This document shows positions 9,077 through 63,597 of a stretch of 64,000 nucleotides of DNA, piece after piece. Position 1 is the stretch's first letter, and every line of letters begins with the position of its first letter. Source of the stretch: Botryllus schlosseri (taxonomy: Eukaryota); NCBI GenBank assembly GCA_051294905.1, contig CM119371.1, positions 18,168,001-18,232,000 of the forward strand, written 5' to 3'. Position numbers and translations under genes: made by a program. The notes beneath the pieces were generated by a model. It had not been told where the DNA came from and ran no database searches. It saw only the letters and a program-made list of their open reading frames with translations.

Positions 9077-9228
9077 GGCATAACGAATTCATTGCAGCTG
9101 GGCCATATCAATATATAACGACAACCTTTGACAAGTCAAATGTTATTTACAGCATCATAATTTAGAACATGGAATGAACAGTGTCCGCAAACATCATATT
9201 GTTTATATTGCCAGATATGCATGTGGAT

Positions 9229-10716: not shown

Positions 10717-12031
10717 CAGGGGTTCTCAACTTCCCTTGTATAACGGGCCGCATTTTAACAGCAAATGACGCTGCGGGCCGCAGAACATTATTACCATGTA
10801 TTTATGGGCGACTATTAAATTTAGGCTACTGTAGCCTATTTACCAGTCATATACGGGCCGGTATGCACCTTTTTATCCCTTCCAACAGAGAACTGAACTC
10901 TCTGTTTCAAAGCGGGAGCGAGCATGTATAAAATTACGGTAACTTTTTCGTTACAGAGGCCATTATCGCAATGAGCTCTCAGTGATATGAGAATAAGTTT
11001 AGCGTTGGGGGTCATTTCTGAGCAAACCAATCAACCCATCTCCATTCATTCCATGGCGGGGCCCTGCACCATTAGTTGATTTTTTTGCTGTCCCCCTCCT
11101 ACGTTTGCCAAACCAGTATTTTCTCTGCAAATATGTCCGCTCCGATAAAAGGCTTCCAGATAAATAGCTATGAAATGTCAGTGGAGTCGGTGAATTCATC
11201 CAATGCTAGGATAAAGTAGTCTACGCGACAACGTGTTTCAGAACATTCGACAAAAGATCGACTGACATTGCTGTTACTCTTTGTGACTACGGTTGAACCA
11301 GTCCAGACAACTGTAGCTTCGACATATGTCAGGTGATGTTGTCATTGCTGCTAAGTTCCGGAAACAGCAAATACTCGCAGAGTTTTATTGAAGTCACAAC
11401 TTCACTAGCAGATTTCGTGGGTTTAGCCCAGCAATTTTGAACGATGTGTCTGTAGCGTCGTCGGCAATTTTACAATGCCTCGAAATATAGATTGCTGGGC
11501 TTGACACCTAGTTAACATTTGTTTAACTCCTGACGAAACGGTCGCGGTATCGTTTTAAGCTTCTACGCTTCGTTACGACTTACGAAAACTGTTCTTCACA
11601 AATATGACACATCAGATTTCCATTTATATCTGAGAATGCAAATTCATTTTACCACTTAGAGTTACAAACTCAGTTCTCGCCGTTTAATTTCCCATTCCTT
11701 GTTCCCGTTTCTGTTCAAAGCATTAGCGGTGAGTGAAACACTCTTAAAAATGTACTTATACGTAGCGGGATTCTTGTGAACCGTAGTCCAACCGAACACA
11801 GATTCAAAACAATAACAATCTAAACTCGAGCATATAACATGAAACCAGAACACATCAAAAATGAGTAATCAAACGAAATAGAGACGGTGCTATAAGAGAG
11901 CTAAGCAGCTCAATTAATGTGCAACAATACCGTGTCAGTAATAATTGCGTTCATAATGAAAGACGTCGCGGGCCGCAAAATTAACGTCTGAGGGCCGCAT
12001 GCGGCCCGCGGGCCGCGGGTTGAGACCCCTG
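10717..12031 (-). mobile_element. Internally deleted hAT (Charlie/SPIN-like) transposon
   Basis: TIRs caggggttctcaac ... gttgagacccctg; perfect TSD CTATAGAG; empty sites at ~7392 and ~43680; inverted paralogue of 1-1377 including the LALDE-type remnant. Confidence 0.9.
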
Positions 12032-13808: not shown

Positions 13809-14942
13809 TTATGTCTGTGGAATCGCTTGTTGGCGCACATGAATGATTTCCAGAGGGAGTATTTCCTGTCTCCCTTGATGTGCTCTTTGACATAATACTA
13901 ACCATGGAAAAAATTTCAATTTCCAATCGGTTGCAATTAAATTGACGCAAATTAGATTCATCATCAAGTTTAACCCAGCAATACTTTGCATCACGTTAGT
14001 GAGTTCCACGGAGTTCAGAAGTAATATCGCCGCAGTTGTATCAGTGACCAAGATTGCTGTTGTCAGGATGGTTACTCTATTTAGCAATCGAACATATTTA
14101 TTATCGGTTGGAATATTTGACTTGCGATTATTTTGCATGTTCTTGATCAATGGACAGATGAATAAAATCAGCATTGGAAACTGAATGGTCCAAGGACATG
14201 CCATCATCATCCACGTGAGCCGTCCGGACACCATATGCGATACGGTTCTGTACGATTCCAATATCATGAAGACAGTTACAAAAACGACAACGACTGTCGT
14301 GTAAACAATGAAGTATTTACTGATAAATCTTGTAATCTTATTTGAAAGATGAGCCAATGTCTTTTCCCGATAGAACGCTCTTTGCCTTTGCCAAATCACT
14401 ACATATAAGGTTAGAGTCACAAATCCCCAGACAGCTGAGAGGTAACGTGACACTGGCAACATATAATAGAAAACCAATCGACATTTGGCAGGTATGAGCG
14501 TTAACACAAGATGGTAGATATCTGCAGGGCTTTCTCCGGTAGCAACAAAATCTTTGGTATCAGACTGGCTCTGTTTGTTTTCAAACATCTCAATCAAAGT
14601 TCTCTGACCTTCGTACAAACTCGTAGATGTACGATTCCAATTGAAAGACGGATACCGGGATATATATTTTCGTTCGTCCATCACGAAAGAGCAATATCGG
14701 TTGTATAATATCGCTCTTGCTAGAGCTATCATTTCTGAAACAGCGCAGACAGTGCCGCTAACAGAAAGTATAATGTTTTCAATGCGCCTCCTTGATATCT
14801 TGAAATCACAGCAAGGCTTCTCATTTTCACGAATCAGATGCAACCATAGAGCGAAACACGTGTAGACTGCGATACCACACAACACGGATTCACACGCGAT
14901 CATAGTGTCGGCACGATGGATGAAATCTTCTTGTTTAGCCAT
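13809..14942 (-). CDS. Orphan 7TM / GPCR-like membrane protein, paralogue 1 (377 aa, uninterrupted CDS)
   Basis: Intact ORF with seven hydrophobic segments; motifs WQRQRAFY..LAHLSNKITRFISK, IQFPMLILFICPL and NLMMNLICV..W..KFFPW shared with two paralogues. Confidence 0.9.
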   Translation of the reverse strand: MAKQEDFIHRADTMIACESVLCGIAVYTCFALWLHLIRENEKPCCDFKISRRRIENIILSVSGTVCAVSEMIALARAILYNRYCSFVMDERKYISRYPSFNWNRTSTSLYEGQRTLIEMFENKQSQSDTKDFVATGESPADIYHLVLTLIPAKCRLVFYYMLPVSRYLSAVWGFVTLTLYVVIWQRQRAFYREKTLAHLSNKITRFISKYFIVYTTVVVVFVTVFMILESYRTVSHMVSGRLTWMMMACPWTIQFPMLILFICPLIKNMQNNRKSNIPTDNKYVRLLNRVTILTTAILVTDTTAAILLLNSVELTNVMQSIAGLNLMMNLICVNLIATDWKLKFFPWLVLCQRAHQGRQEILPLEIIHVRQQAIPQT

Positions 14943-17016
14943 GTTTTCTTCAACAAGATTTTATGGAAATCAATTAAGTAAATCTCTGTAAATTGCAAGT
15001 TGCGACGGTTACACGCCGTTGCGGTATGATAGAGCAATAACATACCACTTTCTAAAGTGAAGCCTCGCATTTCTGAACTGGCATCTGAAATGGAACAGTT
15101 TGAGTCACGCTGATTACTTCCCGGGACGCATCAATACGAATCTAACTCTATGCACCTTCCGCATAGCTTAATTTGCAGCTTTCATGCGAACGAATTAAGA
15201 CTGTTCTCAAAACTACTTACTTACTTAGGTAGATTTAAAGTCAGTCAATTCTACTTCTACTTCAAGTAGTTTTAGGTGGCTTATGGAAGAAGTACTTCTA
15301 CTTGTACTTGAGTAGATTTTTTTCGGCGCTACTTCTACTTCTATTTAAGTAGCTTTCTTGACTACTTTGACCACCTCTGGTTCGTGTTAATACGAAAGTA
15401 TGAAGTAACCGTAAATTTGTACTCAATTACAAGTCCCAGTAGAAGGAGAACTTAAAACCACTTCAAGTGGAAGTAGGAAGTTGAAGGTTCCAAAAGTACT
15501 CAAATAATTGCATTCAAAACATACACTTGGTCGAGAGGACATTAGCTTTTGTAAGTTATACTTTCGAGATCGCAAGATAAATTCCGCTACCATCGCTCAA
15601 GACTAAAACTACTGCAAATAGGTGGAATCTTTGGATACATACTCAGCTACCGTGATACAGAGGCTATTTCACGCGTTTCTTCAGACAATAATCACTCCTG
15701 TGTGAAGTTGTCCGTAAACTACATCCTATTTTTCAAATCCAAAGTGTAAAAGTCAGTTTTGAATACTAAATTGTTCTAGTCAAAGTTGAAGTTGTATAAA
15801 TACATAACCACAATTGTTTTCGCGCTCCGCGCGATTTACTTCCATTTCATGGTTATTACTCTGTCTATAGTTCGGATTTAAAATTTGAGAATTATCTCAT
15901 CAACTGTCGATACCTTCCAAATTATCCGTCGGGTTTGCCAGCATTCTGGTTTCCTTTTGTGATATGACGATAAGGGGGGCGCGAAATTTTTCACTATCAT
16001 AAAGGGAGGCGTGTCTAAAAATGTTTGATAACCACTGATATAGAATATGGGCCTGGTATTTACGACCGTTTATGCCCACTTTTGAATAAAGAAAAATTTC
16101 CCAGTAATCAAACGCTGGGCAGCCATGGCGTTGCTGAAGCGTGTTCCGACCCCGGGGCTAGCATCATTCGTCAAATGATAATCACGCCATATTGAAATAG
16201 TTTGTATATCGCGCTAACCCCGCCACAAATGTATGTTTCTCTTAGGATTTTGTTTCATTGCATTCGTGATACTTGACAATTGTAATGTCTTTGTCCCTCC
16301 AAGAGACATCGTCACCATCAAATATGCCAGAGAATGCCGATCTTTACAGTTGATGTTGATGTTTTATACAGCTTTTGAACTAGTTGAAGTAGAGCGCTTT
16401 TCATTTCCATAAGCTTGTCCATATGCCCTATTTTTTATATGTTTTTGCAGTTTTTTTTTACAAGATTCCAAACACATTCGCGACTCACCTTAGCATTTGT
16501 CGGATACACAGTTTGGGAATCATTACATATGAACTGTTGGTTCATACGAAAGGCAAATACACCAACATAGATGCTTGTATAACAGCTCCATTCTACAACC
16601 ATGCCGATCTGCTGCTGACACCGATACTATACCGCAGACCGATGAAAATAAAACGCGTTACTCATACATATTCCGCATAGAAAATCTGCCATTTGTACTC
16701 TGTTCTGGCAGTGCTTTTCCTGTCATGCTACGGATCCACAAAAAGAAAAAAGGCATTTAAAATCGATATATGGTTTACCGCCTGACACCACCATCTTTGC
16801 TAGTGGTATTCGATGCTGGGTGCGGTTCTAGTTATACGCATCATATCAACATCGCGGACTTGCGCTTAACGCGGAAGGAAATCCTCTATAGCCACGCTTT
16901 GGCTTATAATTAACCCGGCGCTCAAGACTTGCAGACAATGTTCCCTCTGAGCTCTGAGCGCGCCCACGAAGATGAAGCGACAGTCTATAAGCAAAATATG
17001 GATGAAGGGAGGATTA

Positions 17017-20287: not shown

Positions 20288-20558
20288 GCCGAGCGAGATA
20301 GTGTAATGGTTATGCGTCCGGCTTCTCGAGCGGTAGGTCGTGGGTTCGATCTTCGATCCCCGGCCGGGTCATACCAAAGACTCGAAAAATGGTATCCGCA
20401 GCTATCCTGCTAGGCGCTCAGCAATCACGGATAGCATGGAGGAGAAAAAAAACGGGGGCGCAGACTAGATGACCTCATGGGGCCGTATCGCAACTCCGTC
20501 GCCAAAGCATCTCGATGGTGCAGGCGAGAAAGAATATCATATCTCTCTCTCTCTCTCT
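20288..20558 (+). mobile_element. tRNA-derived SINE with (TC)n tail and Meta-like central domain
   Basis: A box TAGTGTAATGG, B box GGTTCGATC, then GGGTCATACCAAAGAC..AAAAATGGTATCC..CCTGCTAGGCGCTCAGCA; absent from the paralogous MITE at 4350-5026. Confidence 0.8.
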
Positions 20559-22266: not shown

Positions 22267-23388
22267 TTAGCGCACATGAATGGCTTGCAGAGGGAATATT
22301 TCTGGTCTTCCTAAATGGGCTCTTTGACACAAGAACACCCAGGGAATAAATTTTAATTTCCAGTCGTTTGCAATTAAATTGACGCAAATTAGGTTGATCA
22401 TCAAGTTTAAAGCAACAATACTTGTAAGTGGGTAACCAAGTCCAGTGAACATCCAAAGTAATATCGCTACGGCTGTGTCCGTCACCAAGGTTACTGTTGT
22501 CAGAACAGTCACTCTTTTTAGTAATCGAACATATTTATGGCAGGTTGGAAGACTTGACTTGCGATTATATTGCATGTTCTTAATCAATGGATAGTTGAAT
22601 ATAATCAGGAGTGGAAATTGGATGGTCCACGGATGTGCCATCAACATCCAAGTGAGGCGTCCGGTCACTAAATCCGATAAGATTCCGTACGATTCCGATT
22701 CTATTAACATAAAGGCAGCTAAAAAAATGATAACGGCTGCCATATAAAAGATGAAATATTTGCTGGTGAATCTTGTTATCTTATTTGAAAGATGAGCGAG
22801 CGTCTTTTCCAAATAGAACGATCGTTGCCTTTGCCAAATCACTCCGTATATGGCTAGACGCACAATTCCCCAGACAGATATCAAGTAAATAGATACTGAC
22901 GACAGAAAATTGAAAATATATCGACATTTGTCAGGAAATAAAGAGTCCATGTATTTCACGTGCTCTTTAGTTAATCCTCCACCAGCAATAAAATCGTAAA
23001 ACTCAGACTCGTTCGGATTGCTTTCAAGAAACTTAATCAGAGCTCTTTTAGCCTCGAACGACATTTTATTTGTACTGTTCAAATTCCGAATAATAGAATC
23101 ACTGATGTCCTTCCATTCGTCCACCCCGAGAGTGCAATACTGTTTAATTAATATCCCACTTGCTATATCCAGCATTAATAGAACAGCGACGAAAGTGCAG
23201 CTAACAGCCAGCAGAATGTTTTCAATCCTCTTTCTTGTGACCTTACAATCCCAACAAGGCTGCTCGGAATCGCGAATCACATACAACCATAGAACAAAAC
23301 AGATGTAGACTGCAATACCACACGCCACTGATTCACACGGTAACACAATGTCGACAGCACCAAAGGTTATATCCATTTGCTCTGGCAT
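22267..23388 (-). CDS. Orphan 7TM / GPCR-like membrane protein, paralogue 2 (373 aa from the ATG at 23388)
   Basis: Intact ORF. The track start at 23436 is TTG; the ATG of MPEQMD aligns with MAKQED of the paralogues. Same WQRQRSFY..LAHLSNK motif. Confidence 0.9.
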   Translation of the reverse strand: MPEQMDITFGAVDIVLPCESVACGIAVYICFVLWLYVIRDSEQPCWDCKVTRKRIENILLAVSCTFVAVLLMLDIASGILIKQYCTLGVDEWKDISDSIIRNLNSTNKMSFEAKRALIKFLESNPNESEFYDFIAGGGLTKEHVKYMDSLFPDKCRYIFNFLSSVSIYLISVWGIVRLAIYGVIWQRQRSFYLEKTLAHLSNKITRFTSKYFIFYMAAVIIFLAAFMLIESESYGILSDLVTGRLTWMLMAHPWTIQFPLLIIFNYPLIKNMQYNRKSSLPTCHKYVRLLKRVTVLTTVTLVTDTAVAILLWMFTGLGYPLTSIVALNLMINLICVNLIANDWKLKFIPWVFLCQRAHLGRPEIFPLQAIHVR

Positions 23389-23829
23389 AATTTCTTCAAT
23401 CTGCTTATAACAATATAAATAAAGTTGATCTGTCAAAAGTTAAAGGCAATTCGCGTCGTCAAAATTCAAGTTGCAGATAAAGTAGTAATATATCATCAAC
23501 TTATAACGCCTGATTATAAAACTAAACAAAATGACTATTAACACTGAGATGGATATAGGCTGTATAGTATTCAGAGGTGGTCAAACTAGTGAAGGAAGTT
23601 ACTCAAGTAGAAGTAGAAATAGTAACGCATAATTTTACTGAAGTACGAGTAGAAGTTCATGGTGCTTTTCGAAAGTTTTGTAAATAAGCTACAAATACGC
23701 CCGCGTGGAATGCGAAACTGTAAAATGACATGGTATGCGTATGGCGGATCGGATAAATTATTCCCTAGACTGTGTAACACGAGAAATGGTCCGTTTTGTA
23801 CATGAGCCATCACGCGCACTGGCGCCCAT

Positions 23830-26620: not shown

Positions 26621-27320
26621 AATTCTTATAAAGACGTATGATACACCGTTGGAAAGGTAATTTTATCAGCTTTTCAATGATAGGTTTTGTCATTTTTTTC
26701 ACTTTGGGGAAAAAAAGTTATGACCAAAAACGTGCGAAGGGGTAGAAATTGAAATTAGGGAAAAAATTGACATAAACATATGAACAGAAGGCTAGAAACT
26801 AATGATTTATCAACAGAAGAGCAGGATATAGATGCAGAAGCTATAAATGAAAATGACAGTAGAATGACATATCTGTTTCAGGGAGAAAGAGTGAGCAACA
26901 TGGGGTGGGGGGGACGTTGGGGGAGGGGGGCACCAGTAGAGCTGTCGTTGTTCGTTATAACTTCATTGTGGTAATTCTTATAAAGACGTATGATATACCG
27001 TTGGAAAGGTAATTTTATCAGCTTTTCAATGATAGGTTTTGTCATTTTTTTTACGTTGAGGGAAAAAAGTTATGACCAAAAACGTGCGAAGGGGTAGAAA
27101 TTGAAATTAGGGAAAAAATTGACATAAACATGAACAAAAGGCTAGAAAGTAATGAATTATCAACAGAAGAGCAGGATATAGATGCAGAAGCTATCAATGA
27201 AAATGACAGTAGAATGATATATCTGTTTCAGGGAGAAAGAGTTAGCAAGGCGGGGGGAGGGGGGGCGTTGGGGAGGGGGGCCCAGTTGAGCTGTCGTTGT
27301 TCGTAATAACTTCATTATGT
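26621..27320. repeat. Direct tandem duplication, ~352-bp unit x2
   Basis: aattcttataaagacgtatg starts at 26621 and 26973; units nearly identical. Confidence 0.95.
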
Positions 27321-34749: not shown

Positions 34750-35853
34750 AACTATGGTTACGCGAACGTAAACCTCATGACGTCATGTGACTTCATATTG
34801 CTTATTCCAACCCTACATTTCAGTGAAGTGATATATTAATGTACGTGATACCTGGCGACGATTCGGGCCAAATAATGCCAAAATGCTGAAGTACATACTG
34901 ACCTTTTAAACGTCGCCATATGTCTCAACTGTGGCAATCAAATGATATAAAAATCCTATAAAATCGATATTTTTCGTCGCTTTTCCAACAATTTCGACAA
35001 GGACTTGCAAGGGAATGTAAGGTTACGCTTTAACAGTCTAGGTCAGACAACGTATCCGGGGTCTGAGTGTTGTTGTGAGCAGACTGTAAAACGGGTTTCC
35101 ATAGTTGCTACCGATATTACCCCATTAACAAGTTGTACAGCAGTAGCCAAAACCCCAATCGCGCGGATTTGGTTTGTATAACACAACAAACATATAAAAT
35201 GGATATGGAGCCCGTAAGCTTGCTAGATGCTTTACATCAGACAACGATAGCAATTTCAGAAATTTTCGAAAATTTATGATAAAATCGGCGAATAAGATCG
35301 GGAATTGCAAATATATTGCCATCAACTTCTTGTTGCATAAATTTTCCAAAAATAATCTATAGAAAATACTTTATAATTTATGCTAATTGACGAAATAATT
35401 TTGAGCCCCCTTCGAGCTCGCCCCCCCCCCCAATTGGGGGGTTTGGGGTGCGGCAGTTACGGGCCCGCCTACAGGTAGCGTGTTTCGCTCTTGATGTTAT
35501 GTGATTGCGGGTCAAGCTCACAGCAGAGAGTCACTAAATATTCACAAACGGTGTGCAGAATATTTCGAGCAAACTTTTGTAACAAAGCAAGTAAAATTTT
35601 TGAGATTATCAAGGTGCATGCTCGTTTAGCGTTGATTTTTTTGTGCTGCCAGCGCCATGCATCGAGTAGCGCGCAGTTGAAATGCAGTAAATTTCAACCT
35701 AAGATGTTATAATTACGTGAAAATTTGATATAGGCCTACTAAAAAGTTTCACCGTGCAGAACCTACCAAGGTTCGTTTGTGAACGTGAACCTCTAAATTT
35801 CTGAGGTTCACACACAGAACGCGAACGTGAACCTCACGCTCACACTATCCCTA
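34750..35853. mobile_element. Partial TAGGGATGGTGTGAAC-family MITE interrupted by a CAGGGCCGTAAC-family fragment
   Basis: Colinear with 52378-53355; right end cacactatcccta. Confidence 0.75.
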
Positions 35854-38800
35854 GTGTCTATTACACAATAATACAGTATACCAGGAGTCGGGAACCTATT
35901 GCTCGCGAGCCATATATGGCTCTTTTGGGTATAGGATATGGCTATTTGCCAAATTTTAATTTTTAAACCTAATTTATCGATATTGCAGCAACTCGTTAGT
36001 AAATTTCAGCACGGTCAGAATGATTATTCTTGTGACAGTATAAACATGTCTTTGAGACGTCAAGACCGTGAGGTATTCAGGGTGAGGGGCTAGGACCCCC
36101 GTTTCAAAATCATCATTTTAGATTATTTCGATTTTACTATACTGCGTCTCACGAATGGATTTCGGTACAGTACTACAGCATTCCTAATAAAAGAACTCAA
36201 AGATTTTCAGCCAAACAATACCCGAATTACTTCGGTGATAATCGAGTTGTTAATGATACAATTGTGCGTGTTTTTATTAAGAGTTTGATTCCAGGGCGAC
36301 AAATTCGCACGGTGATTGAATAATCTCTGGATTCCTGTCGCATAGAGGCAGTTGGTAATGATCCTATAAGTGTGTGAAAACAGCGGAACGGCGGTCGCGC
36401 GAATAATCCGAAACGCAGCTGGATGAAAGTCGACAAAGTCAATGGTAATATTCAGGTTACGATTAAACTTGTCGCGGTAGCTCGATCCCGTACAAAAGAA
36501 TTAACCTCTCAAAGGATTAGGGTTAGAACAAAGTACACTTTTCAGACCATTTCTTATCGAGTCAGGATTGAAATCTGATTCTATGATTTCGTAATTACAA
36601 CCTTACCAGCGATTGTAGGGTTTTGCAACAAACTAATCACTTATTATTATCTCGCGGCCAATCGTAGGGTGTTCAGTGTTCACACTGTACACAGCTCTCT
36701 GCCGACAGACAAATGTCTGAATAACCAAGCCACTAGCGATTCCTATGTCTGTATCGTTATCTTGCTAGCGATCGTAGGGTTTCGTAGCAAACTAATTACG
36801 TATAATTATCTCACGACCTGTCGTAGGGTTCTGATACAAACCACCTACCGATTCATTATAACCTTGTCAGCGATCGTAGGGTTTTAGCTCATTATTATCT
36901 CGAGGCTGAAAGCCCACCTCATCAGCGATCGATATCTCCGTAGTGTTAGTTCAAACCCGATCGTAGGGGATTAAGCTCACCACCGGCCCCATTATTTGAT
37001 GAAGTGTTAGTTCACCACCGGGCCCAACTGAAGTACAGCCACCTTGTCAGCGATTAATACTACTACTGACGAACCTACGATCTCTCGTGTAAATAGTAGA
37101 TTCACGCTTTTACTACTGTCTAAATCTGTGGGAAATCAAAATTTTAATATTCGTGAGCCTCGTAAAATATCATACGGCTCAAACAAGATGTAACTTACAA
37201 AATATATATGTAACTCAAGTTTCGCATGGTCAAATAAGTCAACCAGCATGATTAGTACAAGTTTTTACAGAGAATCGACGAACCCCATGTAATGAGTTTG
37301 AATTAGTGCTACCCTAACGTCACGGATTTTCAATTGTGACGTAGAAGTTGATTGACATGTGTGGCATAGGCTCTGAACTCTTATTTTCCGTTGTTAAGCG
37401 GGATCAATGACGTCACAGAGAGGTGATGTCATACTACGTCAGAATTGACATATGAGCCGACTCGAACGTGTTCAATATCAAAAATCACCTGTCGCTCGTA
37501 TATGATGACAAAATTACGATACTATCATGCAGGCGCGTTGCCAGTCGGCCGCCGGCTGAATTGATTGAATTTGACTAGTGAGTCCGACTGCCGCCAATCG
37601 GGTTGCTCGCAATCTCCGTCAATACGCAACGTATTCGCCAGCGATAAGGGGATATAGGGATATCTAGTAGTTCTAGATATTCCTGGTATTCGCCAACACG
37701 CGCGCCGAAAATCACAAGATTTCAATCACTCCGTCTTGAGAACAAACGAATACGCATCTTGGGCGACGGATAATAAACTGATTTTACAGGAATTATTTTC
37801 TCAAATGCGAAATCTGTTCAATAGTGACACTAATTTCAGAGGAGTCAGAACTTTCGATATCAAGAGTCTAATTCTGCTTACTGCTACGCTTCAGTTACGC
37901 ACCCATGCGCCCCGATAAGCGTTGCCTTTTCTTTTTTGAAATTATGTCACACACGCAATAACTACACGTCGTTGGGGATATTTTGGGTTCACGTGGTGTG
38001 TAGCGTGTACTCTCAAGTCAGTTTACACGTCAACCGTTACAGCCCTAATTATACTCTTCTACTCATATATGTTGTTCGTTCAGATGCCCAGGATTTATTT
38101 GTTGGACGTGGATTGCTTACGACATTCGTAGATTTGTTCACAGTTCACAATGTCACCAGCGTTTCAATATACAATACAAACAATACAATACATTGGGTTA
38201 TAATTTTCATCCGAACAAGCTACACACACAATGTACAACGCGATAAGACACAATGCAATGTAACGCGCTGATAGGGGGATGTCGAACGACATGCGAACGA
38301 CACGCATCAGTAGCGATCCTTTACTCAAACATCCACCTCGGCCTAGGGTGCCCGATGTCACAGTTCTTATTCGGTGTTGATCTTTTTTGAAGCCGCGGCC
38401 CTCTCTATTAGTTCTTTCCGTTTCTTGTGAGTGCTTTCTTTCTTCGGATCTTTTTTTTTTTTGGGGCATTTTCGTCGCCGTAAGAACGCGACAGCTTGGG
38501 AAGAGGAGCCCAAATGAACCTCCGAAACAGTTCACTCTTCGGGCTTTTAGCATTTTCACCCTAGTTATGATGCGCCTATCTCCTTAGCCACTACAAAATC
38601 ACACAATCCTATTAGTTTCGCATTTCCTACAGTGTACGACATTCTGTTAATTATCACATCATATCAAACGTATCATATCAACCGATGCCGTTGTATTTTA
38701 TTAATTTAACCTTCGATTCACGGATTTTCATTTATTTCATTTTTAAACTACCTCTTAAATGATACGACACCCGTTATATTTCATTACATCGCGCGTACAC

Positions 38801-40077: not shown

Positions 40078-42226
40078 CAGTGTTTCTTAACCTCGTCGCC
40101 AGCGCCCCCCCCCCCCCCCCCCCCCCCCCCCGCGAGGAGCGATTTGGATTTTGAAGGGTGTGTAAATGCTAAGGGTCCCTTGGCTAAGGGGACGGTATGG
40201 GTGGCACTGAAGACAATTGGTGTCCCAGTAGAAAGGGTGCAGTAGGGACATACGATTAGATAGTAAAACAACAGTTCTATTTATTCCTGAGCTCTCATTG
40301 CAAATTAACATTCAACACAATCTGTCAAATCTCGAAATTTGTCTCGCGCTGCGCTCGAAGTATATGCCGACAATCTTTGCATGGATGCAGTGGGTTATTG
40401 TAAAAAATTAATTATATAGTGGAATAAATATGACAATATGAACGTATTGTTTGCTGCAGTAAAATTAATTGCGTGTACATTTAGATCGCCAATTCCCCGT
40501 TAAAATACTCACATCACTCTAACTTGGATTATTTTACGCAAAATGTTTCGATCTCAGAGGTATTTTATAGGGATGGTGTGAACGTGAGGTTCACGTTCGC
40601 GTTCTGTGTGTGAACCTCGGAAATTTAGAGGTTCGCGTTCACAACAGAACCTTGGTAGGTTCTGCACTGTGAACCTTTTGGTAAATTGTAACTTTCACTC
40701 CATTATAAGATCTTTGGCTCAAATTAATTGCATTTCAACTGCGGGCCACTCCATGCATGGTGCTGGCAGCATAGAAAATCAACACTAAAAGAGCATGCAC
40801 CATTCACCTCGACAACCTTAAAAGTTTTACTTGCTTTGCTGCAAAAATTTTCTCGGAACATCCAGCTTTCCGTTTGTGAATATTTAGTGACTCTCTGCTG
40901 TGAGCTTGACCCGCAATCGATATACGTAGTCAGCGAATGATGCTTATTCAACCAATCAATGACATTGATATCGTCTTCTGATGTAAAAAATCGAACGGTC
41001 GTGCTGGGTCAATCTTGACTTCATATCTTTACTGTATCATTAAAACCAAATTCGTGAGATTAAGGTGCTTGCTACTGCTGCATAACTTGTTGTTTGTGGT
41101 ATCGGTAGCGAGTATAGAAACCAGTTTTACACTCTGCTCAATATCAATGAATCAATACTCAAACTCCGAACACATTGTTCGGTCTGGCTAGGACCGTTAA
41201 GGCGTAAGCTTATATTCCTTGGTAAGTCCTCGTCGAAATTGTTGGCAAAGCGACGGAAGGTACTGATTTTATGCAATTATTATATCCTTTGATTACCGCA
41301 GTTGATACATTTAGCGACGTTTAAAACGCCGATATGTACTTCATCATTGTGGCATTATGTGGGCCGAATCTTCGCTAGGTATCGTGTACATTAATATAGG
41401 GCATAGGCTATCACTTCATTGAAAGAAAGGGTTGGAATTAGCAATATGACGTCACATGACGTCACGAGGTTCACGTTCGTGTTCACACAGAACCTTTCAA
41501 AAAGGTTCGCGTTCACACGAACCTGAACCTTTCAGAGGTTCACACCATCCCTACTATTTTATCCCGCACCGTATAGCGTGTCGAAATCGAAGAGGTACTG
41601 TACCAGTTTGGGAGTGAGAGCCCTTCGTACATCAAAGATGCTTTGAAGCTTTTTGGTCAAAATGATGAACTAAATATATTTTTATTTGACAGCTACAAAA
41701 TTTACTTTTCAGACTATTTCCTGATCGTATCATGGAGTATCATGGGCTGCATTGTTTGGAATACATTCATGTTAAAGTTACTAACTGGGTGCAGTACTAA
41801 ACTCAATCTGAGCAAAATCTCTATCACTATCTCAGTTTATTAGTCAGATTTATTAGTCACAGAAGGCAATAAAACAAAACCCAATATAATTAGCGTCCCC
41901 GTATTGCCAGTTGCAGAGGTGAATTCTGGATGTGTAGGGTACATCGGGCTCGAACCAGATGATCTGAACCCGTGCCCGATGGTTGTTACAACAACCTTGA
42001 TTGGATCTCGAATATGACACATACAGTTATTATAGCGTTAATCAGTCGAGTGGTCCTCGGACGCGATTCAAGCTATTTGCAATAGTCAAGTCCCCACCCA
42101 AAAAGACCGGCCAGACTTTGAACTGTTACCCCTTGTTCTTACTACCGTCCTTAAATTATATGGGGGAGCTAGACTTGGGCAATTGTCGGAAAGGGGCGCT
42201 GCAGGGGAAAAGGTTACGAACCATTG
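40078..42226. mobile_element. hAT-type non-autonomous element with a C27 run and a nested MITE
   Basis: cagtgtttcttaacct ... aggttacgaaccattg; flanks caatacat/cattgcat; poly-C at 40105-40131. Confidence 0.6.
40568..41553. mobile_element. TAGGGATGGTGTGAAC-family MITE
   Basis: Perfect TIRs; TSD gtatttta/ctatttta; inverted relative to 52378-53355. Confidence 0.9.
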
Positions 42227-44674: not shown

Positions 44675-45817
44675 TCATACCGGGAGCTTATGTCTGATGA
44701 ATTGCTTGTTGGCGCACATGGTTTCCAGAGGGAGTATTTCCTGTCTCCCTTGATGGGCTCTTTGACATAAGACTAACCATGGAAACAATTTTAATTTCCA
44801 ATCGGTTGAAATTATATTGACGCAAAGTAGATTGATCAGCAAGTTCAGGCCATTCATACTTTGCAAGACGTTAGTGAGTTCCAACAAGTTCACAAGTAAT
44901 ACCGACATAGTTGTATCCGTGACTAAGACTACTGTTGTCAGGATGGTTACTCTTTTCAGCAATCGAACATATTTACGATCGGTTGGAATATTTGACTTGC
45001 GATTATTTTGCATGTGCTTAATCAATGGATAGATGAATAAAATCAGGAGTGGAAACTGAATGGTCCACGGAACCGCCATCAACATCCACGTGAGCCGTCC
45101 GGCCACCATATGCGATATGGTTCTGTGCGATTCCACTATCATGAAGACAATTGCAAAAACGAAAAAGACTGTCATATAAACAATGAGGTATTTACTGATA
45201 AATGTTGTAATCTTATTTGAAGGATGAGCCAATGTCTGTTCCCGATAGAACGTTCTTTGCCTTTGCCAAATCACTGCATATATGGTTAGTGTCACAAATC
45301 CCCATACAGGTGGGATGTATTGTGACACTGACATCATATAATCGTAAACCAATCCACATTTGGCAGGTAAGAGAGTCGATAAAAGACGGTACATCTCTGC
45401 AGTATTTTTTCCGGTAGCAAAGACATTGTGGAAATCAGACAGGTTCCATTTGTTTTGAAACATCTCAATCACAGTTCTTTGACCTTCGGACAAATTCTTA
45501 TTTGTACTATTGAAATTCAAAATCGAATACCGAGATATATCTTTTCGTTCGTCCACCACGAAAGAGCAATGTCGTTTTAATAATATCGCACTTGCTATAA
45601 CCATAATTTCTGAAACAGCGAAGACAGTGCAGCTAACAGAAAGCATAATGCTTTCAATGCGCTTCCTTGAGATCTTGCAATCACAGCAAGGCTGCTCTTT
45701 TTCACGAATCAGATGCAACCATAGAACAAAACACATGTAGACTGCGACACCACACACCACGGATTCACACGCGATTAGAGTATCGACACCAGGAAAGATA
45801 TCTTCTTGTTTGGCCAT
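44675..45817 (-). CDS. Orphan 7TM / GPCR-like membrane protein, paralogue 3 (380 aa, uninterrupted CDS)
   Basis: Intact ORF, closest to paralogue 1; WQRQRTFY..LAHPSNK, IQFPLLILFIYPL, W..KLFPW. Confidence 0.9.
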   Translation of the reverse strand: MAKQEDIFPGVDTLIACESVVCGVAVYMCFVLWLHLIREKEQPCCDCKISRKRIESIMLSVSCTVFAVSEIMVIASAILLKRHCSFVVDERKDISRYSILNFNSTNKNLSEGQRTVIEMFQNKWNLSDFHNVFATGKNTAEMYRLLSTLLPAKCGLVYDYMMSVSQYIPPVWGFVTLTIYAVIWQRQRTFYREQTLAHPSNKITTFISKYLIVYMTVFFVFAIVFMIVESHRTISHMVAGRLTWMLMAVPWTIQFPLLILFIYPLIKHMQNNRKSNIPTDRKYVRLLKRVTILTTVVLVTDTTMSVLLVNLLELTNVLQSMNGLNLLINLLCVNIISTDWKLKLFPWLVLCQRAHQGRQEILPLETMCANKQFIRHKLPV

Positions 45818-46248
45818 ATCTACTTCAATAAGCTTTTAAATATATCAAGTAATTAAATCTCTGTAAAATGCAACGTCAAAAAGAAAGTAGCAGATAAAGC
45901 AGTAACATATCATAAAATTGTAACGCGTAATTAAACGAAGATTAACACTAAACATGGTATAGGCTACATGTAGTATGATATCCTAACCAAGTAAAACTAG
46001 ACGGCCGGTGAATGGCTATAATACACAATGCTCCATTGGGTAACATATGTGCAGATTTGCTTCAGGTGATGAGAGGTCGTCTGAGGTGTGGTTTTGTAAA
46101 TTGACTACAAATTTACGTTGTGAAATACTTCACACCGCTCTTTGATGTAAAGATACAGAACAGTCAGAGGTAAAGGTATATAGCGAATTCCGAAAAGCTC
46201 TGCCATGTGGTATATTGTTAGATTTTCCAAAGTGCAGTCGTATCAATT

Positions 46249-49029: not shown

Positions 49030-49335
49030 TCAGTAATTCTAATTCCAATCTAATTTGGAAGAAACTGCGTATCTCTAATTCTAATACTATTCTAATTTGG
49101 AAATAACTTTATAGCTCTAATTCTAATCTAATTTTGAAAAAGCTGTGTAGCTCTAATTCTAATTCTAATGTAATTTGGAAAAAACTGTATAGCTCCAATT
49201 CTAATGTAATTTGGAAAAAGCTGTGTAGCTCCAATTCCAGTTCTAATGTAATTTGGAAAAAAACTGTATAGCTCTGATTCCAATCTAATTTGGAAAAAGC
49301 TGTGTAGCTCTAATCCTAATTCTAATATAATTATG
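49030..49335. repeat. Minisatellite (36-42-bp units), inverted relative of 4386-4745
   Basis: Repeated ttctaat(g/c)taatttggaaaaa(g/a)ctgt(g/a)tagctc. Confidence 0.85.
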
Positions 49336-50697
49336 AAAGGCAGAAAATTTTCTAATTGGTAAAGTCTGCAAATAAGCCAGAGTATCCCAATCCTTACAGG
49401 CAATGCTATAATTAGTTACATCGTCACATGTGTTTTTATTGAGCTTTTGAACTAATTGAAGTGGAGCGCTTTTCATTCGCATAAGCCTGTCCATATATGC
49501 CATATTTTGAATATTTCTACAGTTTTTTACGTTCCAGAATGATTCGCAACACACCTGAGCATCTGTGACGGTACACATAGCTTGGGAATCACTGCATATA
49601 AAATGTAGGTTGATGCGGAAAGCAAATACACCAACATAGTTGCTTGTAAAACAGCTCCGAAATCCAATCTACATCCATGACATCTGTTATCGACACCGAT
49701 GCTATTGCCGACCGATGGTATTATAAAACATTTTGCGCAAAAATCTTTCTGATAGCTAATATTCTAAAGAAGGAAACAGGTTATAACTTGGCCCTACCGT
49801 CTGTGCTAATAGGATTCGAACCTGGTTGCGTTTCTAGTTAAACGTATCATATCAACATCGTGCACTTACGCTTTATGTGGGAAGGAATCATGGCCACGCT
49901 TTGGTTTATATTTAACCCGACGCTCGAGACTCGCAGACCGTGTTGGGTTAAAAAAAAATCGCGAACTTTTTTTACTGTTATGACGCACCTTCTATTGTGG
50001 TATTCACACGAATTCCAGAAATTAGATTAGAATTAGAATTAAATTTGGAGCAAAGAATAACATCAAAAATTAGATTACCGGCATTTCGGTCTAATTCGTC
50101 TTTCTAATTAAGACAACTGCATCGGAGGAGCAAAAGAAATTGATCATTTTGCATAAGCATCCTTGTGTTTCAAACAACTAAATCAAAATTCTATATCATT
50201 ATTCGATTCGGGTTCTTTATTTGGATTATGCGAAAGGCAAGACCGGTACGCAACGTTTCCCTAGTGTCCGAAAGCTGGTATCAGCTGACAGTCAGGATTG
50301 CCTCTCATTAGCGCTTGAGTGTCGCGTCGAAAAAACTACTTCAAGTGACAGTACGAAATGAAAGGTTTGAAAAACGTTGGCCCGGTCAAAGAAATAGTTC
50401 CCAACAGCAGATTTTGCTGAGGAGTGGTGTGATTTTGACAATTAATCGCAGATAGCTATTTTCGAAAGTGCCACATGTACATTCGCAGTGAGTATGCGTG
50501 GTTGTGACATCGACGGTCAGCTACGCAAGCGCAGTATGGCGTAGCAGCCACATGGTGGCTATAGCTCTGCGCCAGCGGCGACAGGCTGCAAGGGGGTGGC
50601 AAAATGAGACTGCGCAGTGCACACATCACGGAGAGATGGCCAATCACGGTCAACACTTTTCAAAGGTGGACTTTTTTTAGTTATATGTGGTAATTGA

Positions 50698-51520
50698 TAG
50701 GGGTGGTGCGAACCCCAGAAAGGTTCTGGTTCGTGTGAACGCGGACATTTCTGAAAGTTTCAGTGTGAACGCGAACGTAAACGTGAACGTATGACGTCAC
50801 ATGTAGTCATATCCCCAATTCCAACCCTACATTTCCGTAAAGTTATTAATGTACATTATAACTAGCGACGACTCGGGCTACATTATGTCACAATGCTGAA
50901 GTACATGCTGACTTTATAAACGTCACCTAATGTATCCACTGGAACAATCAAATGCTATAATATTTCCATAAAATCAATATCTTACGTCGCTTTGCCAACA
51001 ATTTCAAAGTGGATTCGACTAGACCGGAAATATGTAGGCCTATTCTTAAGAGTTAAACACCGGTTTCTATACTTGTGCCAGATATTATCTCAAAAACAAG
51101 TTATACAGTAGCCGACACCCTAATCGGGTATCCAATACAGATATTAAATCAAGATATAGATCCCGTACGCATGATAGATTTTTTACATTAAACATCGATG
51201 CATTCTTTACATCAATTTCGTTGAAGTAAATATAATGGATTGGTAGACTATAAGCACAATTCGCTGACTTCCTGGATGTAGTGTGTTTCGTTGTTGCTAC
51301 TGTGTAATTGCGGGCAAAGCTCATGGCAGAGAGTCGCAAAAGATTCACTTACGTAAAGCAGAATATTTCTAGCAAACTTTCGAGCAAATAATTTTTGAAA
51401 TAGGCAAGGTGCACACTCGTTTAGTGCAGAGTGTCTTTGCATGCTGCCATCACCTTATGGAGAGTGACTCAAAGTTGAAAAGCAAAGAATTTCAATCCTG
51501 TCATATGTCTATGAAGATAA
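50698..51520. mobile_element. Diverged, truncated TAGGGATGGTGTGAAC-family MITE
   Basis: Starts taggggtggtgcgaacc; colinear with the 52378 copy. Confidence 0.7.
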
Positions 51521-51672: not shown

Positions 51673-52075
51673 GTCTCCTAAACTAGCATCCACCTCGGCC
51701 TAGAGCACGATGTCGCAGTTCTTTCTTCGATGTTTTGTCTCTATTGTTGCTCTTTCAATTCCTTGTAAGTGCGCTCTTTCATCGGGTCTTTTACTGGACT
51801 TTTTATCGCCGTAAGAACAGCGATGCGGGAGAAGATGAACACAAAATAATCTCCGTCGCGGAATCAAGCCCGGGCCGCTCTGGTGGCGGGCGCCCTACGT
51901 CACCACTGCGCTATCTCACTTTGTGCAATATGAAGAGAGGTAAGCCCGTGTTGAACAGATAAATAACTTGCTTTTGCAACTTTACACAGCAAGCGATCTT
52001 TCTCGCTCTCACATCAGCTTTCCAGTCGTTCTATGGGTCAAGATCCCTGGCTTTCACCCAGGTGACCCAGGTTCG

Positions 52076-54204
52076 GGCTACAACAAATAAGCCGTCTTGA
52101 GAAACCGATTGAAATATGGCACCCTGAAGCGATATATATAATCAGACAACGAAGGTGAGAGATATAAATTGCAATTTGTATAACAACTTCTACCCTCACA
52201 GAAATACCTTGACGGAGGACTGAAGGAAGGAAAAGGAAATCTTCGATGTATTCAAAAGCCCATCGCAAGAAGCACAAGAACTAAGCCAGAAAGAAATCTA
52301 CCAGATCGTAGTTTAACAGAAGACGCAGCCAAGAGGAAACCACGTGGCTGACTGGAAATAAATATGGCTATACCAACTAGGGATGGTGTGAACCTCTGAA
52401 AGGTTCAGGTTCGTGTGACCGCGAACCTTTTTGAAAGGTTTTGTGTGAACGCGAACGTGAACCTTATGACGTCACGTGACGTCATATTGCTAATTCCAAC
52501 CCTATATTTCAATGAAGTGATAGCCTATATTAATGTACACGATACCCAGCGACGACTCGGGCCACATAATGGCACAATGCTGAAGTACATATTGACGTTT
52601 TAAACGTCGCTAAATGTATCAACTGAGGCAATCAAATGATATAATAATCCCATAAATCAATATCTTCCGTCGCTTCGCCAACAATTTCGACGAGGACTTG
52701 CCCGGCAATATAAGCGTACGCCTTAACTGTCTAGGCCGGACCCTAAAATGTATTCGGCGTCTGAGTATTGCTACATGGATATTGCGCAGAGTGTAAAATG
52801 GGTTTTTATACTTGCTACCGCTATTACTCCATAGTAAGCTACACAAGCTATACAACAATAGCAAACACCCCAATCGCACGGATTTGGTTTTTATGATACA
52901 GTAAACATGTGAAGACAAGATTGACCTCGTACGATACTAGATTTTTACATCAGAAAACGATATAGATTGAATAAGCATCATTCGCTATCTACATGTAGTG
53001 TATTTCGATTTTGATATTGTGTGATTGCCGGTCAAGCTCACAGCAGAGAGTCACTAAATATTCACAAACGGAAAGCTGGATATTTCGAGCAAACTTTTGT
53101 TAGAAAGTAAGTTAAAATTTTTGAAATTGTCAAGGTGTTGATCGTTTATGCTGCCAGTGCCATGCATAGAGCGGTTCGCAGTTGAAATGCAATAAATGTG
53201 AACCAAATAAGTTAAAATGAAGTGAAAATTGTAATAAATATGAAAAAGGTTCACAGTGCAGAACCTACCAAGGTTCTGTTGTGAACACGAACCTCAGAAT
53301 TTCCGAGGTTCGCACACAGAACGCGAACGTGAACCTCACGTTCACACCATCCCTAATACCAACCCAACATCAAATATTACACTGAAAACATGCAGCGTGA
53401 AATTTCATACCGCAATAACATTGAAAGTTGGTTTACAGTCTCCAGAAGCACCAACGGATAGGTTGGGTACGAAGGAAAGACGCCTACTTGAGTAACAGAT
53501 GCAAATTCTGAACCATACCTTCGCGGAATGTGCAACTTACAAAAACCTAGGATCTTGAGAATGACCTGCAAACGACTATCGACGCTACACCCGACGAAAT
53601 CATGCGCAACGTATACGACGGAACGCCAGCTCCGACAATAATTAAAGCTTTTATGAACGTCAAAAGCCTAGTGTGGGAATGGAAAATGCACTCGACATCC
53701 AAGGCGAGTACGCCCACAACATTGAACAAAGCATCAACGATATAAGAAGTGAAATTTACCGCAAAATCTCGGCGGAAACATCCAACTAAACTATCCGATA
53801 ATACGCGACAAATCTTATTTATCAACCCACAGAACCCAACCATTTCACCCACCACCTATCCTAAACATCCTATCCTCTCATTCCATCCCATCCTTCCAAC
53901 CCTTTTCCAACCCATATCACCCCCCACCAACACTCCTCCCCGAATACCCAACACACCTACACAAACCATACATCAACCATCATAAACGATAAAATTACGT
54001 CTACAAAAGCTTAATAAGAACAATACACGCATACGAACGCCAACTAGCGGCGGCTTCTACTACGACCTCGACTAGACTACTAATTCAACTCCGATAACGA
54101 CTGCGATGAGATGAATCGATGATGTGAACGAACCAAACCGAAAGTTTTGCATTTATGATTTTATTGCTATTTTATGCACATACTTGAATAAAAATCACAA
54201 AAAC
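52076..54204 (+). mobile_element. 5'-truncated, decayed non-LTR retrotransposon (L1/Tx1-like ORF2 3' end plus 3' UTR)
   Basis: Remnant peptides KEIYQIV..W, RCKF(C)..NHTFAEC (CCHC knuckle, ~53497-53531) and VKSLVWEW; C/A-rich 3' UTR, AATAAA and A-rich tail; 6-bp TSD. Confidence 0.65.
52378..53355. mobile_element. TAGGGATGGTGTGAAC-family MITE nested in the LINE remnant
   Basis: Perfect 16-bp TIRs; perfect TSD ATACCAAC. Confidence 0.95.
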
Positions 54205-54479
54205 GGTTCGATTCCCGGACTGGGAACGTTTTTTTTGTGGGGAATGTTGAAGGGACACTGCATAACTATAGCTATAATATTATTGAACTTTCCCTATTGT
54301 ATTTTAGCTGTAGTAGTCTACCATTAAACCTCATCCTCAACACCAATGTTCCTTCTAAGCTGCGCACATGCGCAAATGCGCAGTGCTGACACGGTCTGTG
54401 CGCACAGAAAATCTAAGTTGCGCACAAAGAATCCTAAGTGATGACCTTTTTTTAGTCGTGACGCACTGTTGTCCAAGGG

Positions 54480-57200: not shown

Positions 57201-59971
57201 GTCTTGGCCATCATTGGTTGCAGGTAATTAGGGCCGATCAGAAGTCGAATTCTGCGTGATACTGTTACGGTGGTACGCAGTGTGCAGTGGCGTTTGCGAG
57301 CTAGCTCGAGCGAAGTATTTTACCGGTGAATTGTCGATCTAATAGTACGCGCAATTAATTTTGCATAAGCCATTTGGGGTACAGAACTTCAGACTAACGC
57401 GAAACAATAACTTCATATTGATAATTTATTCGATAAAGGCTTTTCGACTGACTCTCATCAGTAGCGAACGTCAGTAATAGGGTGAATCAAATTCGAAATG
57501 TAGGAGCTATTTTGTCTGTATGGCGTAATAATAACAAAAACAAACAACTAGTAGACAGGCAAGATACGGTAGTAACGAAACATAACAAACGTTAACGAGT
57601 ACATCTTCGGTTATAAATAACCGAAAAACAACAACAAAATTTTGCATGAATTATAATAAACCACTGCATACGTGGACACATGTTGCAAACATCGGCGGTA
57701 TATATTACGAGCGTAGCGCGAAGACAAATTTCGAGATTTGACAGAATTTGTCAAAGTTTAATTAGGATAAATAGAACTGTCCCTGCTACACCATCTACGG
57801 CGACGCCGTTTTTCGTTAGCATCCCCATACCCCCCTCAGAGTCTAGCGCCCCACATATCTCTCCCTGAACGTTCCGTTCCCTTCAATATCGAAATAGCCC
57901 CCTAGGGGCACTGGAGCCATGGTTAAACACCGCTGCTCTACAGCTATATCATGCATTAGGTGCTGACTGTCGGGGAATCAATATACGTCTACGGTGTCAC
58001 AGTTAAAATCGAAATAACTACGGTTCATGTGCAATTATAAAAAGAATTCTTCTTGTGAGTAAATTTGTCAATGTCATGGATGCAAGTCTTCATACATGAT
58101 AAGTTGTAGAGGATTCTTCACGCCCCATGACTAATGCGCCTGGGGAGAGTCTCCTCCTCATTACAAATCACGGAGATATAGGTACGTACCTTCGTCCTAT
58201 ACACGATACTTGATAATTTAGACTCAGATTCTTAGAGCTGCATTAGCAATGTGCATATACACAATCAAATTTTCCAGTCAGTTCGAGTTGGTATATCGAC
58301 CGGATCATGTAATTGATCGTGCCATTGATCGTGCCAGTCCTATCCTGTCACTAGTATGGATCGATGACGGCACAACGAAAACAGCAACCTTTCTCCCGTA
58401 AGCGAATGTACTTACTAACAAAGGTCATATGTTTTCGTACATTGGCTACAAATTCTGCGTTGTGAAATACTTCACATCGCCCTTTGGCGTAAAGATACAG
58501 AAACGTTAGAGCTAAAGGTACAATACAGCGAATTCCGAAAAGTGCCTCCATGGGGTGTATTGCCACGGTGCTTTATTTTTTATGGCTCTCCCTTCTCCGC
58601 CTCGGGTGAGTGACGCGGTGGCGGTCGTCTGTTTTGTTGTTGTTGTTGTTGTAGTAGTATTAGTTTGCTTATATTTGGTATTATTTTATCAGGATTTCGA
58701 GTGATTTGTACCGTCATCAAATAATAGATTCGTCCACTTGGTGTTTCTTGTTTGATGTCAGTTGAGATTCTTGAGAACCACGAATAAGTCAGCTTTCTAC
58801 AATCATCGCCATTTTTGGAGACAATGGGTATCGTTATATTTTCTAGAGAGCAGTTGTGTCATAGACTGTCGCATTTTTCTCCATCGCCACGATGATCTTG
58901 ACATCGCTTTATACTCTGTATGCATGATTATAGGGTCAGAAACCTTGGCGTATGAAGTTTAGGATAACATGCGACTCCGTGAGGTGTGCAGACAAAAAAT
59001 ATAGACGGGAGAAAATATTCGCAAGTAACTACCACGTCTGTTGACAGAGATGACGCATGTCTGATAAAATGCCAATTTCGAACCATGCGCACTTCACTAA
59101 AGAAGTGTTTCTTCTGGTTTCGAGTGGTACATCCGGGCGATTCCGATAAAATTTGAATACAGCGACAATTCTGGCGCGGGCTCACGTTCGCGTTCTGTGT
59201 GCCAACTTCAGATATTTAGAAGTTCACGATCACAAACGAACCTTATTGGTAGGTTCTGCACCGTGAACATTTTTTCATATATTACAATTTTTCACGTCAA
59301 TATAACATCTTTCGTTGAAATTCTTTGCATTTCAACTTCAGACCACTCTATGCATGACGCTTGCTGCATAAAAACAACCAGCAGTAAACGAGCATGCACC
59401 TTAGGCCTACCATTCTTATAAATTAAACTTGCTTTGTTACGATAGTTTGCTCGAAATATTCAGCTTCCCGTTTGTGAATATTTTGTGACTTTGTTCCTTA
59501 TTCAACCGATCAATGAAATTGATAAAGAATACATCGTTGTCTAGCAGGCGTGCGGGATCCATCTTGATCTGACAGGTTTGTTGTATCATAAAAGTTTTGT
59601 TTTTGAAAATCCCTATTGTATATTGAAACTATTGAAAGATCAATTTCGATATTCATCACACATCAGAAATATTTTGGATTGGGATTTCGGAATCAAATTG
59701 AATAAGCCATTTCGTGATTTTCCCAAGATTTTAGCCTATACTCCATATAATCCCGGGATTTTTCGAGATTAGCAGAATATAACAATCTGCAAGCTACACA
59801 AATCTTATTTATTACATATACTGACACAAAATACCAGTGCATCGAGAGTAGCCTCTATCACCGTTTACGCGACTTCTGATTTTTGTGGCAAAATATGCAA
59901 GAGCTGAAAATGCACGTTGGATTAATACTTTTTCAAATTACATCGCCTTATTTTGTTTGCTTCATATAGAA

Positions 59972-62014: not shown

Positions 62015-62311
62015 ATATAGAAGCTTTTCCTCGCATTTCCTGAGCGCCGATGTTACAGTTTTGTGCTTTAGTTTCTTATTCGCTTTTATATTCTGCTGCG
62101 AAAGCATGCGCTAAGCGGCTAAAGTATGAGCTTAAGACGTTTCAGTGTCACTGACATGGCTACGATATATTGCTGTCATAATTCTCCATTGATTAGCTGA
62201 CTTTGGGAAATCTGATGAGCGGTAAGCCCGTGCTCACTGCTCAACGGTTCATCGAGATTCGAGAGAAGACTTTGGCAATATTGAAGCGATCGTCGCCTCC
62301 CTCATTCGGCT

Positions 62312-62383
62312 TCCCAGTTGGTCTAGGGGTCAGGATTCCTGGCTTTCACCCAGGCGGCCCGGGTTCGATTCCCGGACTGGGAA
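62312..62383 (+). tRNA. tRNA-Glu-TTC: tRNA-Glu (anticodon TTC)
   Basis: Full cloverleaf: acceptor TCCCAGT/ACTGGGA, anticodon arm CCTGG-CTTTCAC-CCAGG, T arm CCGGG-TTCGATT-CCCGG; TTTT immediately downstream. Confidence 0.97.
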
Positions 62384-63597
62384 CGTTTTATTATTGGCTG
62401 GAGAAGTTGAAGGAACACTGCGGAACTGCAGCTAAGATATTATTCGAATTTGCCCATTGCCCCATCAACCTGATCATCAACACTAATAGATTCAATTATT
62501 ATTATTAGCTGGTTTGGAATAAATTGCACACTGCAGCAGATTTCACACCAACTTGCACTTTGAAACTGCTTGAGTCAATTGAGGTAAAACGTACTCAGCT
62601 GCAGAGTTGCGGCATTATGCTCGAAATCAATCACTACCATATACTTAGACCACAGCATATATATTTCCATTGATTAGGCTGTCACCACCATAAAGCCATT
62701 GAACCATCACCTTGACTCACACGAGAAGGATGCTCACTGCTCAGTAAACAAGTACACCTGCTTTTTCGAAGGACTTTTTTGCCTACACAGATGCGTATGT
62801 TCCATACATCGCGGTTGCCATACCGTCCTTATTTATAAGATTTGTCCTTATTTTGAAGGGCCACGTCTTAGAAAACTCAACTGTACTTATTTCCAAGAAA
62901 TATCCTTTTTTTCGACTTGCATAATATTCTAAATTTATGCTTTTGCATCGAGATTTTATGACATTATAAGTGAACGGAGCGAATCAGCCAATGAATCGCA
63001 AAATAATTTCAAAAATCAAACTATAGAGTATGACTGGAGTGACGACTCGATTGTTCTCCCATTGTTAGCCGGCAGAATGGTCACGGTCAGATGGATCCAC
63101 CCAAAACAGGATAGCTCAGTGCTTGTTTCAATGGCGTTCAAGGCGATTCGTCGTGTATTTCTTGAAGTTGCGTCGGAATTAGTTAGACAGTTCAACATTT
63201 AGGTAGCGGTGGCGAGTCGTTATGACTAGTGAATAATACTGTGTAGCCTATGTTACATTTCTCACGAGATTGATGTGATATTGTGGCTTTGATCCTTTGT
63301 AGAGTTTGCTACGTATATGAATAATGAATATGATGACGGAAGGTATAGAATATCTGGTTCGTGTGCATTGGCTATTGTGAGATGAACTCATGGAAAGAAA
63401 GACTGAAGAATACTACAAAGTGAACAAGTGGAAAGATCTTGAACTATACCGATATGCAATTCACAATATCGTTGATTGAAAATATGTCCTATATTAACTG
63501 AAGAAACTCGAGAATGAATATAACAAATAATATTGCAACTGTCTTGTAGTCTTATATAATGCCTGTCCGATAACCGCAGAAACTTGAGTATGACTAG

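Follow-up and report, generated by a model that had tools for sequence, protein, structure and literature searches.

A non-LTR retroelement within the T-loop of a tRNA-Glu gene in Botryllus schlosseri suggests a LINE family that may prefer this site

The window analysed here, a stretch of 64,000 nucleotides from the genome of Botryllus schlosseri, contains a single intact tRNA gene, a tRNA-Glu(TTC) on the forward strand at 62312–62383, recognised by Rfam (60.7 bits) and by ARAGORN. This gene served as the reference for a paralogous tRNA-Glu(TTC) locus, also on the forward strand, that is split by an insert. The decayed 5′ part of the broken gene (52020–52075, gene positions 1–56) is identical to 62312–62367 at 47 of 56 positions and ends in GGTTCG (52070–52075, gene positions 51–56). 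On the far side of the insert, GGTTCG is present again (54205–54210), forming a 6-bp target-site duplication, and opens the 3′ part of the gene (54205–54226, gene positions 51–72), which matches the intact gene at 22 of 22 bases, and at 28 of 28 if the trailer is followed to 54232. Homology extends outwards on both sides. The upstream flank (51920–52019) aligns with 62200–62311, the flank of the intact gene, with 68 identities, 23 mismatches and 30 gap columns, while the T-run terminator and downstream flank (54227–54299) align with 62384–62459 with 57 identities, 16 mismatches and 3 gaps. A first-pass annotation of this DNA had placed an interruption after gene position 56 with GGTTCG duplicated, and had described the flanks of the broken and intact loci as homologous; all of its coordinates for the split hold in the comparison with 62312–62383. 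At junctions fixed by flank homology, a six-base match has a chance probability of ~2.4e-4. When the empty site was rebuilt by script, ARAGORN called a tRNA-Glu at a lowered threshold, and 19 of 21 stem pairs were retained.

Because both flanks match the intact tRNA-Glu locus, the element entered a tRNA locus already present in the genome and does not carry a retrocopied tRNA head; a tRNA head acquired by template switching was ruled out on the same grounds. An assembly artefact was likewise ruled out, since pieces of the insert that are identical or nearly so (99–100%) were present in contigs of three sequencing runs (X2, X5 and X6) from three samples. All 9 substitutions in the broken gene fall in its 5′ part (p ~0.02–0.04, post hoc); this asymmetry could be due to chance, or could mean that the 3′ part underwent gene conversion.

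Further tRNA-like sequence was seen at 51860–51915 on the reverse strand, where a decayed head with A-box-like and B-box-like motifs lies ~105 bp upstream of the broken tRNA-Glu and points away from it; the adjoining stretch resembles 38330–38524, making this a candidate SINE or tRNA pseudogene. At 20290–20367, ARAGORN reported a tRNA-Glu(CTC)-like sequence, either a pseudogene or the head of a SINE, but only once its threshold was lowered. An Rfam miRNA match at 54243–54303 was dismissed as chance (25.6 bits versus a cut-off of 76). The window also contains a 42-bp minisatellite that occurs twice in opposite orientations (4384–4745 and 49034–49338), and a 352-bp tandem duplication at 26621–27316 (93% identity).

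The insert is itself interrupted by a nested MITE of 978 bp (52378–53355, strand unassigned), bounded by a perfect 16-bp terminal inverted repeat and by an 8-bp duplication, ATACCAAC, at 52370–52377 and 53356–53363, features that confirm its earlier annotation. Given the 8-bp duplication and the short inverted repeat, traits associated with this class, we take it to be hAT-like. A full copy of the MITE, 80% identical and with a duplication matching at 7 of 8 positions, lies at 40568–41553. More copies of the MITE family are found at 34760–35853, 50698–51013, 51250–51411 and 59179–59490, with identities of 75–81% when the copy at 40568–41553 is included. With the MITE set aside, the insert measures 1,143 bp by computation, in line with the ~1.15 kb given by the first-pass annotation, and has the same orientation as the tRNA-Glu; no second copy of it was found in the 64-kb window.

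The 5′-most part of the element that is retained (52076–52377, forward strand) is decayed coding sequence in a frame that starts at 52077, and presumably derives from late ORF2, judging by its motifs. If the MITE is removed together with one copy of its duplication, this frame resumes in register downstream, implying that both halves belong to one element and that the MITE is younger. The remainder of the coding region (53364–53789, forward strand), delineated by its translation and by relatives in the sequencing-run contigs, carries a broken Cys/His knuckle and runs to a last stop at 53787–53789. Stops and frameshifts are present in the coding remnant. Most related contigs have one extra base behind 53682, so that one frameshift there appears private to this copy. 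Seven of the 14 majority differences of the relatives fall in third codon positions, too few to indicate coding constraint. The CCHC-like remnant proposed earlier is split between two reading frames (RCKF and NHTFAEC) and was recognised by no database. Downstream lies the 3′ UTR (53790–54204, forward strand), which combines a C/A-rich tract (53800–54010; 41% C, 35% A and 3% G), AATAAA at 54187–54192 and a short, interrupted A-rich tail (54193–54204; 8 A of 12), with a peak in contig depth at 54156–54191 in two runs. The annotated C/A-rich UTR, polyadenylation motif and tail are thus all borne out by composition and sequence. As is typical of the anatomy used to recognise a LINE, a target-site duplication and a 3′ A-rich tail are present and terminal repeats are absent. 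This copy includes neither a reverse transcriptase nor an endonuclease, as expected if it is 5′-truncated.

Assignment of the element to a clade depends on the coding end. Here KEIY, W..IW, C..C/H...C and W.W.N, as they appear in the peptides KEIY, W..IW, RCKF, NHTFAEC and VWEWK, bear a tentative likeness to the C-terminus of an L1-group ORF2. Broken pieces of 33–97 residues were used as protein queries. These pieces of the remnant found no match in Pfam, in word-index protein searches or in the PDB, and no retroelement match when HMMER was run against 1.84 billion protein representatives. Four HMMER hits were dismissed, all being to unrelated tandem-repeat proteins, as were chaperonin fragments proposed by the Atlas (0.89–0.90), for which recognition was below threshold. 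Since the queries were short and broken, these negative searches are weak evidence. The earlier description of an L1/Tx1-like retroelement is therefore upheld as far as a non-LTR anatomy goes, while its L1/Tx1 part received no support from any protein search with these short, broken queries. No Pfam family was recognised in any of the 147 open stretches of at least 72 amino acids in the window (147 of 147 searched), which leaves no reverse transcriptase within it to serve as bait. Three paralogous, uninterrupted frames of 383–390 codons on the reverse strand (13809–14960, 22267–23439 and 44675–45835) encode hydrophobic proteins that lack a Pfam family; their Atlas look-alikes are serpentine-receptor-like clusters that are commonest in chordates (score 0.95, with recognition just under threshold). 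Searches for the tail and T-loop pattern in metagenome contigs, for the 3′-end pattern of the element in prokaryote genomes and viral contigs, and for related loci in viral contigs found none.

LINEs inside tRNA genes, the T-arm included, are already published for the NeSL-related lineage, as seen in PMC4640811 (S6 Fig). There, NeSL-1_TV of Trichomonas lies in the T-arm of tRNA-Pro, with GGTT missing between its junctions; LIN25_SM of a planarian lies in tRNA-Glu(TTC) genes, with its 3′ junction after gene position 4; and LIN15_SM, also of a planarian, lies in the D-stem of tRNA-Arg. The Botryllus insertion resembles NeSL-1_TV in being a non-LTR element in a tRNA T-arm, in the orientation of the gene and beside CCCG/GGTT, and shares the tRNA-Glu(TTC) target of LIN25_SM, but it lies in the T-loop of tRNA-Glu, unlike the junction of LIN25_SM after position 4 or that of LIN15_SM in the tRNA-Arg D-stem. 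It differs from NeSL-1_TV, a member of the restriction-like endonuclease group, in its host and in the tRNA concerned. The element might nevertheless belong to the NeSL-related lineage and carry a restriction-like endonuclease rather than be of L1/Tx1 type, given that NeSL-1_TV occupies the same stretch of the T-arm in tRNA-Pro (PMC4640811) and that no tool assigned the remnant to a clade. We consider this very improbable: the frame stops ~90 residues past the knuckle, within which a restriction-like nuclease motif was not seen by eye and found no profile match, and NeSL-1_TV lacks four target bases and has no A tail in S6 Fig of PMC4640811, whereas six bases are duplicated here and a tail is present.

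The abundance of related sequence was assessed by mapping contigs of runs X2, X5 and X6 to 53364–54420, along with unassembled reads from a single RNA run. Summed contig depth is not a copy number, and contig overlaps blur arithmetic on it. Read in that light, X2 depth was ~1,250–3,970 over 53544–53759 of the element versus ~29 over the flank at 54264–54335, and X5 depth was 2,000–11,700 versus 134–157 over the same intervals, values that again do not count copies. Depth on the element thus exceeds that of the right flank by tens to more than 100 times, indicating a multicopy family, and this family is dispersed, with pieces that are 80–92% identical. Taken together, the duplication, the AATAAA with its tail, the frame that runs across the MITE site and the multicopy family support the identification of the insert as a non-LTR retroelement. 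Several related copies skip 143–337 bases (with joints between 53600–53650 and 53788–53974) of either the coding C-terminus or the C-rich UTR, which suggests subfamilies that differ in their 3′ ends. The RNA run (X23, of which ~6 in 100 was covered) placed a few reads on the element, none of them 99% alike over the stretch and none over the junction, and we do not take this as evidence on expression. Separately, a short repeat at 54344–54417, present once in the window, reached a summed contig depth of 10^4–10^6, ~100 times that of the LINE family.

Junctions were examined in the 24 of 10,458 pieces that were listed, a sample kept for length and hence one that favours copies running into the tRNA. 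Six of these 24 cover the end of the tail: two represent this locus (99–100% identical), one, at 92%, comes from an allele or a near paralogue, and the remaining three are diverged copies (80–83%). Among the diverged pieces within these best 24 of 10,458, two of the three continue through the 3′ half of tRNA-Glu. One of the two (record 16 of X5; 1,530 bases) aligns with 53962–54226, preceded by 933 bases and followed by 338 that are unlike this locus, and its match ends exactly at the last base of the tRNA-Glu. Because it leaves the match at the end of the gene, it is the best sign among these sequences of an independent event, in which the element entered another tRNA-Glu gene followed by a different trailer. 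The other (record 2 of X2) aligns with 53833–54235, covering the tRNA half and reaching the T-run before its contig ends; as it has the trailer of our locus, it could be a duplicate of the same insertion or a separate one. The third diverged piece (record 4 of X2) matches to 54209, that is through GGTTC, and then diverges over its last 46 bases, suggesting a target akin to this one yet distinct from it.

These junctions bear on whether the site was hit by chance. An unspecific LINE could have struck a tRNA gene once, the other junction contigs then being segmental duplicates or alleles. The region is rich in duplications, the tRNA-Glu unit itself being duplicated, record 2 of X2 shares the trailer of this locus, and the depth of the family mostly stops before the end of the tRNA. 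Even so, we regard this as unlikely, since record 16 of X5 differs both upstream of 53962 and directly after the end of the gene, record 4 of X2 retains GGTTC before it diverges, and the target is G+C-rich.

At the opposite extreme, the family could be strictly specific for tRNA-Glu, as the two of three diverged pieces among those listed might suggest, with LIN25_SM providing a precedent for a tRNA-Glu target in PMC4640811. The S6 Fig of that source also places LIN25_SM copies in other repeats, so that there too the behaviour amounts to a preference. Besides the one diverged piece of the three listed that ends after GGTTC, depth argues against strict specificity. X2 depth fell from 3,807 at 54156–54191 to 204 at 54229, and X5 depth from 6,404 near the tail to 331 past the end of the gene, leaving ~1/20 of the depth at the tail. 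The junction bin in X2 and X5 fits either 20–46% of the depth continuing to the end of the gene or all copies sharing only 5–6 bases; in X6 the corresponding figure is 0–29%, with no excess if the common depth ends at 54204. Given the steep drop after the tail, strict tRNA-Glu specificity is distinctly unlikely. The tRNA-gene-targeting family proposed in the first-pass annotation accordingly stands in part: the T-loop is reused in two of the three diverged junction pieces listed, a sample biased towards long matches, while the fall in depth past the tail makes strict specificity doubtful.

The reading we favour, with a probability of roughly 0.55, is that of a site-preferring LINE family of L1/Tx1 type that has the tRNA-Glu T-loop among its targets and is not restricted to tRNA-Glu. 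Two or more diverged relatives are likewise joined to the 3′ half of a tRNA-Glu gene, so the family probably prefers this site, and its endonuclease is likely to favour a short, G+C-rich site in the T-arm beyond tRNA-Glu alone. The copy described here is old, dead and MITE-interrupted, and is likely a 5′-truncated LINE of L1/Tx1 type; it has destroyed one of several tRNA-Glu genes. Target-primed reverse transcription is established for non-LTR elements, and unspecific mammalian L1 targets a T-rich site. The target here has no A/T run, a difference from the mammalian L1 site that fits an endonuclease which reads sequence. Under this model, a nick of the lower strand just before GGTTCG would have allowed cDNA synthesis primed on the A tail, copying would have halted after ~1.14 kb to yield the 5′ truncation, and a second nick, offset by 6 bases, would have produced the 6-bp duplication. 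The MITE would have inserted later, with the copy and the 5′ half of the tRNA decaying thereafter.

Site choice could alternatively be directed by Pol III factors, with TFIIIC on the B box guiding the element as for TRE5-A of Dictyostelium, instead of by direct reading of sequence. The insertion site is the B box, and TRE5-A depends on the B box being intact and makes contact with TFIIIB, according to PMC5006619 and PMC5911963. The same sources describe TRE5 and TRE3, of the L1 clade, as guided by Pol III factors to flanking windows ~50 bp upstream of the gene or 100 bp downstream of it, the gene itself staying intact. They are thus APE-type LINEs for which tRNA genes act as landmarks; in contrast, the insertion studied here breaks its gene, at a fixed position within the binding site of the factor. 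Tethering of this kind therefore seems improbable to us, and we retain the preference of an endonuclease for the site itself as the better account.

By its ORF2 motifs, the element presumably belongs to the same clade as Mutsu and Keno. A further, tentative possibility is that one APE-type LINE lineage reads a GGTT-type motif in Pol III internal promoters and has, hypothetically, switched between two kinds of target, 5S rRNA genes and the T-loop of tRNA genes. As PMC5340908, PMC4494074 and PMC3706591 describe them, Mutsu (in 5S rRNA genes) and Keno (in U2 snRNA genes) resemble this element: both are poly(A)-tailed LINEs whose insertion at a set position inside a small multicopy RNA gene destroys that gene. 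The target gene here is instead tRNA-Glu. Within 5S genes, the sites of Mutsu fall in the 5′ half (PMC5340908). The Fig. 3 legend of PMC4494074 gives the targets of Tx1 elements as U2, U5, 5S, satellites, microsatellites and transposons, with no tRNA in that legend, and the criterion of Kojima for a sequence-specific LINE, according to the same source, is that the target occurs in >20% of flanks. The first-pass annotation had invoked Dewa as a precedent for tRNA genes. This required correction: in PMC3706591, Dewa, a Tx1-group LINE of zebrafish, inserts in the spacer of a tRNA-Leu array and not in the gene, so that the two are alike in their tie to tRNA arrays and differ in that the present insertion lies inside the gene. 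Dada elements, which are found inside tRNA genes, are DNA transposons (PMC3706591). The available parts of PMC8869645, PMC5035012 and PMC5753468 contain nothing on this insertion site. The literature searched yielded no element of APE type within a tRNA gene, which falls short of showing that none is in print. If the APE-type assignment holds, novelty at the T-loop would lie only in the type of element.

Site-specific LINEs are models of how an endonuclease chooses its target, and also serve as insertion tools. As far as the available parts of the literature searched go, insertion inside tRNA genes has been described only for elements of the restriction-like endonuclease lineage. If an APE-type family does occupy the T-loop, it would represent the convergence of a different nuclease on the same target, and would provide a testable target pair, tRNA and possibly 5S. 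Were a lineage that switches between 5S and tRNA to prove real, cutting inside tRNA genes would be a first for a Tx1-type element, and the lineage would offer a natural case of an endonuclease changing its target between classes of small-RNA genes.
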